Source: Escherichia coli
GTDB taxonomy: Bacteria > Pseudomonadota > Gammaproteobacteria > Enterobacterales > Enterobacteriaceae
Strand: one strand, 5' to 3'
NCBI RefSeq assembly: GCF_003334785.1
Contig: NZ_QOWV01000009.1
Length of the DNA stretch: 64,000 nucleotides
Shown: positions 6,812-49,502 of the stretch, piece by piece
Position numbering within the stretch: position 1 is the stretch's first letter
How the letters are laid out: every line of letters starts with the position of its first letter
Notes under the pieces: model-generated
Told to the model about the DNA's origin: nothing
The model's database searches: none
What the model saw: only the letters and a program-made list of their open reading frames with translations
Made by a program: the position numbers and the translations under genes

Positions 6812-7610
6812 AGCAACGGAGATCCTGACAGGTAAAGTTATGCAAAAATCGGTCTTAATTACCGGATGTTCCAGTGGAATTGGCCTGGAAAGCGCGCTCG
6901 AATTAAAACGCCAGGGTTTTCATGTGCTGGCAGGTTGCCGGAAACCGGATGATGTTGAGCGCATGAACAGCATGGGATTTACCGGCGTGTTGATCGATCT
7001 GGATTCACCAGAAAGTGTTGATCGCGCAGCCGACGAGGTGATCGCCCTGACCGATAATTGTCTGTATGGGATCTTTAACAATGCCGGATTCGGCATGTAT
7101 GGCCCCCTTTCCACCATCAGCCGTGCGCAGATGGAACAGCAGTTTTCCGCCAACTTTTTCGGCGCACACCAGCTCACCATGCGCCTGTTACCCGCGATGT
7201 TACCGCACGGTGAAGGGCGTATTGTGATGACATCATCGGTGATGGGATTAATCTCCACGCCGGGTCGTGGCGCTTACGCGGCCAGTAAATATGCGCTGGA
7301 GGCGTGGTCAGACGCACTGCGCATGGAGCTGCGCCACAGCGGAATTAAAGTCAGCCTGATCGAACCCGGTCCCATTCGTACTCGCTTCACCGACAACGTC
7401 AACCAGACGCAAAGTGATAAACCAGTCGAAAATCCCGGCATCGCCGCCCGCTTTACGTTGGGACCGGAAGCGGTGGTGGACAAAGTACGCCATGCTTTTA
7501 TTAGCGAGAAGCCGAAGATGCGCTATCCGGTGACGCTGGTGACCTGGGCGGTAATGGTGCTTAAGCGCCTGCTGCCGGGGCGCGTGATGGACAAAATATT
7601 GCAGGGGTGA
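6801..7610 (+). CDS. ybbO: Short-chain dehydrogenase/reductase (NAD(P)-dependent oxidoreductase)
   Basis: TGCSSGIGLE Rossmann motif and YAASKYALE catalytic YxxxK; overlaps tesA stop by 11 nt. Confidence 0.9.
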   Translation: MTHKATEILTGKVMQKSVLITGCSSGIGLESALELKRQGFHVLAGCRKPDDVERMNSMGFTGVLIDLDSPESVDRAADEVIALTDNCLYGIFNNAGFGMYGPLSTISRAQMEQQFSANFFGAHQLTMRLLPAMLPHGEGRIVMTSSVMGLISTPGRGAYAASKYALEAWSDALRMELRHSGIKVSLIEPGPIRTRFTDNVNQTQSDKPVENPGIAARFTLGPEAVVDKVRHAFISEKPKMRYPVTLVTWAVMVLKRLLPGRVMDKILQG

Positions 7611-24421: not shown

Positions 24422-24505
24422 TGTAGGCATGATAAGACGCGCCAGCGTCGCATCAGGCATCGAGAGCCAAATGCCAGATGCGGCGTGAACGCCTTATCTG
24501 GCCTA
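24422..24505. repeat. REP pair (BIME) between ybaL and gsk
   Basis: GTAGGCATGATAAGACGCGCCAGCGTCGCATCAGGCA ... GATGCGGCGTGAACGCCTTATCTGGCCTAC. Confidence 0.85.
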
Positions 24506-31926: not shown

Positions 31927-33858
31927 TCAAATGGGGCGGATACTTTCTTCATCCAGCTCCGCATCGAAGAACCGACGCAGGGTCTGAATATTATTATCCG
32001 CAATAATGGACTCGCGCGCCTGCGCAAGTTTTTCTTCGTATATCGCCTGACGCCACTCCAGCGGCGTACGCACCGCGGGATTATCATCTTCAACGATAGT
32101 CAGTTCAACCGTTGAACCTTTTAACATGCTCAACGCTTCAGCCAGTTTTTGCTGTGCACCGCGGTTGTTCAAATGCCGCTGAGAGGAGCGCAAATGCAGA
32201 CATACTGCGTTGTCGCTCTCCTCTTTCCAGGCATTTAACGCCACCTGTTCGACCAGTTTTGGTAGCGAAAGTTGGCTCACCTGTGCCGCCCACGGGTCGC
32301 GCTCAATGGCTTCTGCCGCTAGCTTCGCCGCCAGTTCCGGCGTTTTTTCATGTTCCAGCGCTTTTTTCAGCGCCTTCGGCGTGGCGACCACTTCTTTTTG
32401 CTGCATCACCGGAGTGGTCGCCTTCCAGCGATACGCTTCTTTTTTGGCTGGCGCTTTTTCCAGCGCCGATGGCACCGGACGCGCCTGAACGCGATCGGTG
32501 ACCGAAGCCAGTCTTTCCAGCGCAGCGTTATTCACCGGCCGCGCGCGGGTAGCGGCTGCCGGTTCACTCTTTTTTGCTTTGGTTGCTCCCTGCACGCGCT
32601 GCAACTGCTGGCGCGCCGCCAGCACCTGGCTGGTGGTTTCCGGGAGCGGTACAGTCGGTGCCTGCTGCGGCGCTGATTGCGGTTGCGGCGGCACCTGGGT
32701 TGGCGTCATTACTGCCGTTGGCGCGACGGGTGCAAAGGACTGTCGTGGCACTTCTGGCTCAGGCAGCGGCATACGCGGATGGAATGCCAGCGCGCGCAGC
32801 AGCGTCATCTCAACGCCCATGCGACGGTCCGGCGCATACGGTAATTCTTTGCGACCAATCAACAGCGTCTGATAGTAAAGCTGAATATCCGTCGGCGGTA
32901 TGGTGCGCGCCAGTTCACGCATCCGCAGCTCGATGGCGGCCATGTCGTTGCCAAGTGCAGCAGGCGAAAGTTGTACCATCGCAATACGATGCAACAGGCC
33001 GAGCATTTCCACCAGCAACGCTTCCCACTCGATACCACGGGCAGCGGCTTCATTAATCAGCGCCATTACGCGCTCGCCGTTGGCCTCGACCATCGCTTCA
33101 ACCAGCGACAGCGCCTGATCGTCGTCAAGCGTACCCAGCATCGCACTGACCGCCTGGGTTGAAACCTGGCCGTCACCGCTGGCAATCGCCTGGTCGGTCA
33201 GACTTAAGGCATCTCGCAGGCTGCCTTCAGCGGCGCGTGCCAGCAATTGCAGCGCCCGCGGCTCGTGAGCGATATGTTCTTCGTTGAGGATGTGCTCAAG
33301 CTGATGGCGAATTTGCTCGACATCCAGCGCCTTGAGATGAAATTGCAGACAGCGTGACAAAATCGTCACCGGCAATTTCTGTGGATCGGTCGTCGCCAGC
33401 AGAAACTTAACGTGCTCCGGCGGCTCTTCAAGGGTTTTTAACAGTGCGTTAAAGCTGTGGCGCGACAGCATATGCACTTCGTCGATCAGATAAACTTTGA
33501 AACGACCACGCGCCGGAGCGTACTGGACGTTATCCAGCAGGTCGCGGGTATCTTCAACTTTGGTGCGCGAGGCGGCGTCGATTTCAATCAGATCGACAAA
33601 GCGCCCCTGCTCGATTTCACGACAGTTATCGCACACGCCGCACGGCGTCGCGGTAATGCCGGTTTCGCAGTTTAGCCCCTTCGCCAGCAGTCGGGCGATA
33701 GAGGTTTTTCCGACGCCACGGGTGCCGGAAAAAAGATAAGCATGATGAATACGCCCTAACGACAAGCCGTTCGCCAGTGCGGTCAGCACATGTTCCTGGC
33801 CGACGACGTCAGCAAAGGTTTGTGGGCGCCATTTTCGGGCTAAGACCTGATAACTCAT
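31927..33858 (-). CDS. dnaX: DNA polymerase III subunits tau (full length) and gamma (via -1 frameshift)
   Basis: AAA+ Walker A GTRGVGKTS; internal A AAA AAG slippery site at codons 428-430. Confidence 0.95.
   Translation of the reverse strand: MSYQVLARKWRPQTFADVVGQEHVLTALANGLSLGRIHHAYLFSGTRGVGKTSIARLLAKGLNCETGITATPCGVCDNCREIEQGRFVDLIEIDAASRTKVEDTRDLLDNVQYAPARGRFKVYLIDEVHMLSRHSFNALLKTLEEPPEHVKFLLATTDPQKLPVTILSRCLQFHLKALDVEQIRHQLEHILNEEHIAHEPRALQLLARAAEGSLRDALSLTDQAIASGDGQVSTQAVSAMLGTLDDDQALSLVEAMVEANGERVMALINEAAARGIEWEALLVEMLGLLHRIAMVQLSPAALGNDMAAIELRMRELARTIPPTDIQLYYQTLLIGRKELPYAPDRRMGVEMTLLRALAFHPRMPLPEPEVPRQSFAPVAPTAVMTPTQVPPQPQSAPQQAPTVPLPETTSQVLAARQQLQRVQGATKAKKSEPAAATRARPVNNAALERLASVTDRVQARPVPSALEKAPAKKEAYRWKATTPVMQQKEVVATPKALKKALEHEKTPELAAKLAAEAIERDPWAAQVSQLSLPKLVEQVALNAWKEESDNAVCLHLRSSQRHLNNRGAQQKLAEALSMLKGSTVELTIVEDDNPAVRTPLEWRQAIYEEKLAQARESIIADNNIQTLRRFFDAELDEESIRPI
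32564..32575 (-). other. dnaX: Programmed -1 ribosomal frameshift site in dnaX (A AAA AAG; -1 frame reads AAA AAA GAG TGA)
   Basis: Minus strand GCA AAA AAG AGT GAA at codons 428-432, followed by the GC-rich stem CCGGCAGCCGCTACCCGCGCGCGGCCGG. Confidence 0.9.
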
Positions 33859-49388: not shown

Positions 49389-49502
49389 GGGTGGGGGCCC
49401 TGCCAGCTACATCCCGGCACACGCGTCATCTGCCTTGGCTGCTTCCTTCCGGACCTGACCTGGTAAACAGAGTAGCGTTGCGGGAGAACCAACAGAGCCC
49501 CC
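49389..49502 (-). ncRNA. ffs: 4.5S RNA (signal recognition particle RNA)
   Basis: Minus strand reads GGGGGCTCTGTTGGTTCTCCCGCAACGCTACTCTGTTTACCAGGTCAGGTCCGGAAGGAAGCAGCCAAGGCAGATGACGCGTGTGCCGGGATGTAGCTGGCAGGGCCCCCACCC, 114 nt, matching the 4.5S RNA sequence as I recall it. Confidence 0.93.

Follow-up and report, generated by a model that had tools for sequence, protein, structure and literature searches.

The dnaX programmed −1 frameshift cassette of Escherichia coli, intact in a 64-kb genomic window

Does the single long open reading frame that spans positions 32564..32575 of this stretch of E. coli DNA specify one protein or two? (By 'the window' we mean throughout the whole 64-kb stretch that was analysed.) The original prediction, made from the letters of the sequence, was that this short segment is the textbook dnaX site at which both tau and gamma are produced, and that an annotation track with a single open reading frame conceals the second product. 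Our analysis points the same way, none of its results speaks against this reading, and we assign a probability of about 97% to the site being the E. coli dnaX cassette for programmed −1 ribosomal frameshifting, giving tau and gamma. The cassette is intact, and it is already known and annotated in public genomes; it adds nothing new to biology. Its value here lies in annotation only, in that a track consisting of one 643-codon open reading frame hides the 431-amino-acid gamma, an abundant and real part of DNA polymerase III's clamp loader.

The identity of the host gene was established from its protein product and by comparison with reference genomes. The only long open reading frame across 32564..32575 is that at 33858..31927 on the minus strand. 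Its product belongs to the NCBIfam equivalog PRK07994 ('DNA polymerase III subunit gamma/tau'), with a score of 981.9 bits against a cutoff of 613, and carries Pfam matches to DNA_pol3_delta2, gamma3, tau_4 and tau_5. Alignment with annotated dnaX, which had been proposed as a check, gave 100% identity with the gene of E. coli K-12 MG1655; many other strains likewise have a 2-kb dnaX region that is 100% identical. On the strength of the PRK07994 assignment, the Pfam domains and the identity with K-12, the gene is dnaX, which codes for the clamp loader's subunits tau and gamma. The gene, its products and the parts of the cassette are as follows.

33858..31927, minus strand: dnaX zero-frame open reading frame, 643 codons, encoding tau (643 aa, 71.1 kDa)
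32564..33858, minus strand: coding range of gamma (431 aa, 47.5 kDa), consisting of codons 1-430 in frame 0, the −1 slip, GAG (Glu) and TGA
tau residues 20-358: AAA+ clamp-loader module (Pfam)
tau residues 417-498: tau domain IV, DnaB-binding (Pfam)
tau residues 500-640: tau domain V, alpha-binding (Pfam)
32594..32530, minus strand: Rfam RF00382, matched along its full length (model positions 1-65 of 65), with a RefSeq sequence_feature over the same span
32591..32586, minus strand: Shine-Dalgarno-like AGGGAG, the 5′ stimulator, with a 10-nt spacer to the heptamer; role from the literature (PMC5009743)
32575..32569, minus strand: slippery heptamer A_AAA_AAG, comprising the third base of codon 428 and then codons 429 and 430
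32569..32564, minus strand: GAG TGA in the −1 frame, where gamma has its last codon and, at 32566..32564, its stop
32568..32564, minus strand: AGUGA, the 5-nt spacer from heptamer to hairpin, which carries the −1 frame stop
32563..32534, minus strand: 3′ stimulatory hairpin of 30 nt and 11 bp (6 + 2 + 3)

Read on the minus strand, positions 32564..32575 are 5′-AAAAAAGAGTGA-3′. The heptamer starts at nucleotide 1284 of the mRNA, the third base of codon 428 (GCA), and continues through AAA (codon 429) and AAG (codon 430); its phase in the dnaX zero frame is X_XXY_YYZ, as is required for tandem −1 slippage. The prediction had correctly placed A AAA AAG at codons 428-430, with the count beginning at that third base, and was also right that GAG TGA follows in the −1 frame (32569..32564), the G at 32569 being read twice on the slip. 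The predicted length of 431 residues for gamma was borne out as well: gamma shares 430 residues with tau and then adds Glu, giving the C-terminus ...KAKKE. Because translation of gamma stops after residue 431, essentially all of Pfam tau domains IV and V are lost from it. Neither the minus strand nor the Shine-Dalgarno-like stimulator upstream of the heptamer had been mentioned. Going by what is established about the 16S rRNA sequence, AGGGAG would pair with its 3′ end.

Downstream of the heptamer, the predicted G+C-rich stem is present as an 11-bp hairpin with a folding energy of −18.0 kcal/mol; its loop has 5 nt, its stem a bulged C and an A/G apposition. It is conserved with covariation among related bacteria. 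The original prediction had proposed folding the 30 nt that follow the heptamer. A hairpin does exist there, as anticipated, but it ends 35 nt past the heptamer, and a 30-nt segment cuts its 3′ arm.

The whole arrangement corresponds to a catalogued element, as the description of it as a textbook site implied. Rfam RF00382, the DnaX ribosomal frameshifting element, matches end to end and untruncated with 96.8 bits (gathering score 35, E 5.8e-20), and the structure line of the family includes the hairpin. RefSeq annotates one CDS, 'DNA polymerase III subunit gamma/tau', together with a sequence_feature, 'DnaX frameshifting element', on the same 65 nt (32530..32594). Such is RefSeq practice, and the remark that the single open reading frame hides a second product is a fair one. 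The window is colinear with the MG1655 record NZ_CP032667.1, from which it differs by nine single bases in 64 kb, none of them in dnaX. Compared with the cassette of E. coli K-12 dnaX (RF00382), the present one shows no difference: the 65 positions, the gene, the phase, the spacings, the hairpin and the products are the same.

We considered how much of this pattern could be expected by chance. The bare heptamer AAAAAAG is unremarkable, being about as common as chance predicts, with 17 copies in the 64-kb window and 12.3 ± 3.8 expected. The absence of the heptamer from the dnaX frame had been named as the observation that would count against the prediction; the heptamer is indeed present in that frame, but with a motif of near-chance frequency this is a weak test. 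Only two of the 17 copies lie in the slippery phase of an annotated gene in the window, one in dnaX and the other in ybaQ. The ybaQ copy sits three codons before the stop of that gene. Unlike the heptamer alone, the composite signal is unusual: AGGGAG-N10-AAAAAAG-NN-TGA occurs once, with no mismatches, and 0.06 occurrences are expected even when two mismatches are allowed.

Folding energies were compared with those of shuffled sequences. The isolated hairpin has a z-score of about −2.1 to −2.3, and eight of 200 shuffles fold equally well. An 86-nt segment containing it folds no better than its shuffles (z = −0.29), because the surrounding region is G+C-rich and the shuffles fold alike. The argument from energy is consequently weak when taken alone, and the case for the hairpin rests on the isolated element together with the comparative data described below. 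Two further copies of AAAAAAG within dnaX, at 32445..32439 and 32367..32361, were considered as additional shift sites and rejected, their phase being AAA_AAA_G; the −1 frames that follow them are open for 170 and 144 codons, respectively.

Of 5426 complete E. coli genomes, 5425 contain the 2-kb dnaX region, and in only 2180 of these 5425 is it at least 99% identical. The 65-nt element occurs without internal mismatch in 5373 of 5424 complete genomes, as judged from a band of at least 99% identity that also takes in end-trimmed alignments such as that of H22 (62 of 65 nt).

To extend the comparison, 100,044 species genomes were scanned with the pattern AGGGAG-N(9-11)-AAAAAAGAGTGA, which leaves the hairpin unconstrained. 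At least 53 of the 120 matches listed lie in loci with a DnaX homologue, with protein identities of 66-99% to DnaX of the window. The genera represented among these loci are Escherichia, Citrobacter, Enterobacter, Kluyvera, Kosakonia, Pluralibacter, Siccibacter, Phytobacter, Pseudescherichia, Serratia, Pantoea, Erwinia and Mixta. Matches outside dnaX were also seen. At least about 45 of those listed come from Collinsella, and we rejected a second frameshift family in this genus as a coincidence multiplied by a finely split genus: the match lies at the start of the sigma-factor gene downstream of dnaG, and AGGGAG occupies the position of that gene's own ribosome binding site. The remaining non-dnaX matches listed are scattered singles (in Prevotella, Paenibacillus, Flavobacterium and others) whose surroundings have nothing in common.

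Forty-six distinct 71-nt dnaX sequences from Enterobacterales were aligned with MAFFT. This sample was selected for the Shine-Dalgarno-like box, the heptamer and AGTGA, so that conservation of those parts within it is circular; the hairpin is the informative part. When the Rfam structure is laid on the alignment, 88% of the cells hold a standard pair in register, compared with 29-52% when the 3′ partners are slid by one to three columns. The closing pair of the hairpin is A-U in 31 of the 46 sequences and G-C in 12, and the change from A-U to G-C couples a synonymous GAA>GAG substitution to a Val>Ala replacement on the opposite arm. In Mixta one outer stem pair is A-U in place of G-C, and in one further sequence (L070) the same exchange is found in an apical pair. 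These covariation events are few and clade-linked, and the region also encodes tau residues, so part of its conservation is at the level of the protein. Codons 439-441, which form the 3′ arm, provide a measure unforced by either the search pattern or the filter: their third positions are invariant, against a gene-wide mean of 0.68. The peak of third-position conservation at codons 423-434 is largely forced by pattern and filter, and we place weight on codons 439-441 only.

The apical part of the stem takes two forms. In sequences of the E. coli type it is GCCGC/GCG-C-GC, with pairs 41-51, 42-50 and 43-49 and the bulged C; in the Enterobacter/Pantoea/Serratia type it is GCGC/GCGC, with pairs 41-52 and 42-51 and loops of 5 or 8 nt. 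In both, the 6-bp base below and the spacing are the same. Because the apical stem occurs in two registers, RNAalifold applied to the MAFFT alignment recovers no more than one inner pair besides the outer 6-bp stem; we therefore counted both registers explicitly and folded each sequence alone. All 46 sequences yield a hairpin of 9-11 bp at the same position, and in 45 of them the energy falls between −16.6 and −22.1 kcal/mol, the exception being 'Candidatus Pantoea persica' at −13.6 kcal/mol. Since two non-homologous apical stems have similar predicted energies in 45 of 46 sequences, we tentatively suggest, at somewhat less than even odds, that what stabilizing selection maintains in the hairpin may be a set stability, and with it a set ratio of tau to gamma, and not a set sequence. 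If measurements bore this out, it would refine a known system in a small, quantitative way, and the point may already have been described.

Among −1 frameshift sites, that of dnaX is a standard model of how the process works. The original work on it is reportedly that of Tsuchihashi and Kornberg, Flower and McHenry, and Blinkowa and Walker, all in 1990, and the Shine-Dalgarno box and the stem-loop are said to have been treated by Larsen and colleagues in 1994 and 1997. At A_AAA_AAG in dnaX, 50% of ribosomes move into frame −1 and end translation one codon further on, and a major stimulus comes from the 5′ Shine-Dalgarno sequence (PMC5009743). The site is highly shift-prone because the sole tRNA-Lys, with mnm5s2U34, reads both AAA and AAG but pairs more strongly with AAA than with AAG, so that re-pairing on AAA is favoured (PMC5009743). 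The published stem has 11 bp, a bulged C and an A:G apposition, a description with which the hairpin found here agrees (PMC5009743). With purified components, frameshifting is about 60%, falling to about 25% without the hairpin, and values of 50-80% are quoted; the hairpin makes translocation slower and impedes the binding of tRNA in the A site (PMC7282821).

Taken together, these observations suggest how the cassette in the window would operate. Ribosomes translating dnaX would arrive at codons 429-430 (AAA AAG) with tRNA-Lys occupying both the P and the A site, held upstream by pairing of the AGGGAG box with the anti-Shine-Dalgarno end of 16S rRNA and downstream by the 11-bp hairpin, which at the mRNA entrance would hinder translocation and A-site tRNA binding. 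About half of them would then slip back by one base, from A AAA AAG to AAA AAA G, where re-pairing of tRNA-Lys is expected to be at least as good. The slipped ribosomes would read GAG and then the UGA stop, releasing the 431-aa gamma, and the unslipped half would stay in frame and complete the 643-aa tau. Gamma would thus retain the AAA+ clamp-loader module and lack the domains with which tau binds DnaB helicase and the alpha subunit of the polymerase. The genes for E. coli tRNA-Lys presumably lie elsewhere in the genome than in the window. What our analysis itself showed in this account is that each element of the sequence is there, with its phase, its spacing, its fold and its conservation; the efficiency of about 50-80%, the roles of the Shine-Dalgarno box and the hairpin, and the function of gamma are taken from the literature. 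The published efficiencies can safely be transferred because the sequence is identical to the K-12 allele that was studied.

Other routes to a short DnaX product are known, and the best surviving of them, which we nevertheless regard as very improbable, is that gamma arises from slippage of RNA polymerase on the A-run, with normal translation of mRNAs that have gained or lost an A. Such a mechanism has been described for dnaX of Thermus thermophilus and for runs of nine A or T (PMC5009743), and the site does contain a homopolymeric run. This run is of six A residues, however, below the approximately nine quoted for efficient slippage (PMC5009743), and a conserved, covarying hairpin and a Shine-Dalgarno box at fixed spacing are features directed at the ribosome. 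Moreover, a defined mRNA translated by purified ribosomes yields about 60% frameshifting (PMC7282821).

Still less probable is proteolytic cleavage of tau as the source of the short product, with the heptamer and the stop codon incidental. In Caulobacter crescentus gamma does derive from proteolysis of tau, but gamma of E. coli is stated to be the product of −1 frameshifting with 50% efficiency (PMC5009743). Cleavage of the protein would require neither a cassette that is far more conserved than its surroundings nor invariant third positions within an otherwise variable linker.

The least probable alternative is that a common heptamer and a G+C-rich stretch happen to lie together without any function, for which speak the chance-level frequency of AAAAAAG (17 copies against 12.3 expected) and the ordinary fold of the 86-nt segment, and against which stand the exact composite pattern (0.06 expected), the Rfam E value of 5.8e-20, the conservation and covariation across Enterobacterales, and a refutation already provided by comparative data and published mutagenesis (PMC5009743, PMC7282821).

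Programmed −1 ribosomal frameshifting at the dnaX cassette, the reading that we prefer, can be set beside other systems in which one gene or element yields more than one product. Among E. coli genes that are not mobile, the well-characterized programmed frameshifts are those of dnaX, copA and prfB (PMC10861913). The copA site lies in the same window.

14771..14777, plus strand: copA −1 frameshift heptamer C_CCA_AAG, which yields the CopA(Z) chaperone

Like dnaX, copA is a chromosomal gene in which a −1 shift leads to a near-immediate stop and a truncated, N-terminal product. It differs from dnaX in its heptamer, C_CCA_AAG, and in the early location of the shift, at codons 67-69 of 834. The downstream stimulator of copA is probably also different from that of dnaX, and the efficiency probably lower.

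Among mobile elements, the −1 frameshift sites of bacterial IS elements (IS3, IS911 and IS1 type) are comparable. A 5′ Shine-Dalgarno stimulator also takes part in the −1 frameshifting of an estimated 56% of IS elements (PMC5009743). IS911 has a 3′ stimulatory structure, which is a three-way junction where that of dnaX is a simple hairpin (PMC5009743). The outcomes differ: the shift in IS elements fuses two open reading frames into a longer transposase, whereas that in dnaX leads to a stop one codon later and hence to a shorter product. Many IS frameshift sites use heptamers of the A_AAA_AAG type.

Finally, the dnaX genes of T. thermophilus and C. crescentus achieve the same outcome as that of E. 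coli, tau and gamma from one gene, although neither does so by a ribosomal −1 shift: T. thermophilus relies on RNA polymerase slippage at a longer A-run, and C. crescentus on proteolysis (PMC5009743).

The window matches the E. coli K-12 MG1655 record NZ_CP032667.1 colinearly throughout its 64 kb except for nine single-base differences (positions 7313, 28521, 50189, 50262, 51178, 54717, 57471, 58491 and 61068), none of which falls in dnaX. When all copies of AAAAAAG in the window were placed in their reading frames, one copy besides that of the dnaX frameshift site was found to lie in the A_AAA_AAG phase inside an annotated gene, and two further runs were present in the part of dnaX that is translated only in tau.

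17400..17406, minus strand: AAAAAAG in A_AAA_AAG phase, end of ybaQ (17391..17732)
32439..32445, minus strand: AAAAAAG in the tau-only part of dnaX
32361..32367, minus strand: AAAAAAG in the tau-only part of dnaX

The two dnaX runs were rejected as frameshift sites, as they are read as AAA_AAA_G (Lys-Lys), which is not the slippery phase; the -1 frame contains no stop for 170 codons at the first and 144 at the second. The ybaQ copy is located three codons ahead of the stop of this gene, which encodes a HigA-family antitoxin, and a -1 slip there is predicted from the sequence to exchange the final two residues (VA) for 11 others. A search upstream of this heptamer for a Shine-Dalgarno (SD)-like box found none, and the downstream fold is weak (-5.8 kcal/mol). 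The ybaQ site is probably insignificant.

Among the dnaX sequences of other Enterobacterales, the element of 'Candidatus Pantoea persica' stands apart.

L014 2966..3036, minus strand: 'Candidatus Pantoea persica' dnaX element, from pattern scan and alignment

The element retains an intact SD box, heptamer and -1 stop. Among the matches listed, however, the sequence 3′ of the signal is unlike that of all 45 other distinct dnaX sequences, and the predicted hairpin differs from theirs in its 3′ arm and is weaker (-13.6 versus -16.6 to -22.1 kcal/mol). On this folding comparison, the stimulator may be degraded or remodelled in a symbiont-like lineage.

Further copies of the exact string AGGGAG-N10-AAAAAAGAGTGA come from the genus Collinsella: dozens of its species genomes carry one where the primary sigma-factor gene begins, directly downstream of dnaG. 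The set comprises the locus given here and about 45 others among the matches listed (e.g. L002, L003 and L015-L017).

L042 9769..9796, minus strand: Collinsella AGGGAG-N10-AAAAAAGAGTGA match, from pattern scan

If the gene starts at GTG, AGGGAG occupies the position of its ribosome binding site; if it starts at the upstream ATG, AGGGAG forms codons 2-4, codons 7-9 hold the heptamer in slippery phase, and the -1 frame reads GAG TGA. No obvious hairpin is present 3′ of the heptamer at these loci. The most likely explanation is a coincidental dnaX-like string, counted many times over in a genus that is finely divided into species.

Other features of the window include Rfam matches above the gathering score and a RefSeq pseudogene.

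17187..17365 and 24426..24503: naRNA4, three sites, two of which also score on the opposite strand
18663..18746: sRNA sroB
49398..49494: ffs (4.5S SRP RNA), annotated in the MG1655 record as well
11954..12051, minus strand: small pseudogene fragment, frameshifted and incomplete, between cueR and ybaT

Another known site of programmed -1 frameshifting in the window, beside that of dnaX, is found in copA.

14771..14777, plus strand: copA -1 frameshift heptamer C_CCA_AAG, inside copA (14571..17075)

A reading-frame check places C_CCA_AAG in slippery phase at codons 67-69, followed in the -1 frame by GGC TAA, and the downstream 80 nt have a predicted folding energy of -30.1 kcal/mol. Judged from the sequence, a -1 shift here would yield CopA(Z), a metal-binding product of 70 amino acids. 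Both copA and dnaX are listed as well-characterized -1 cases (PMC10861913).
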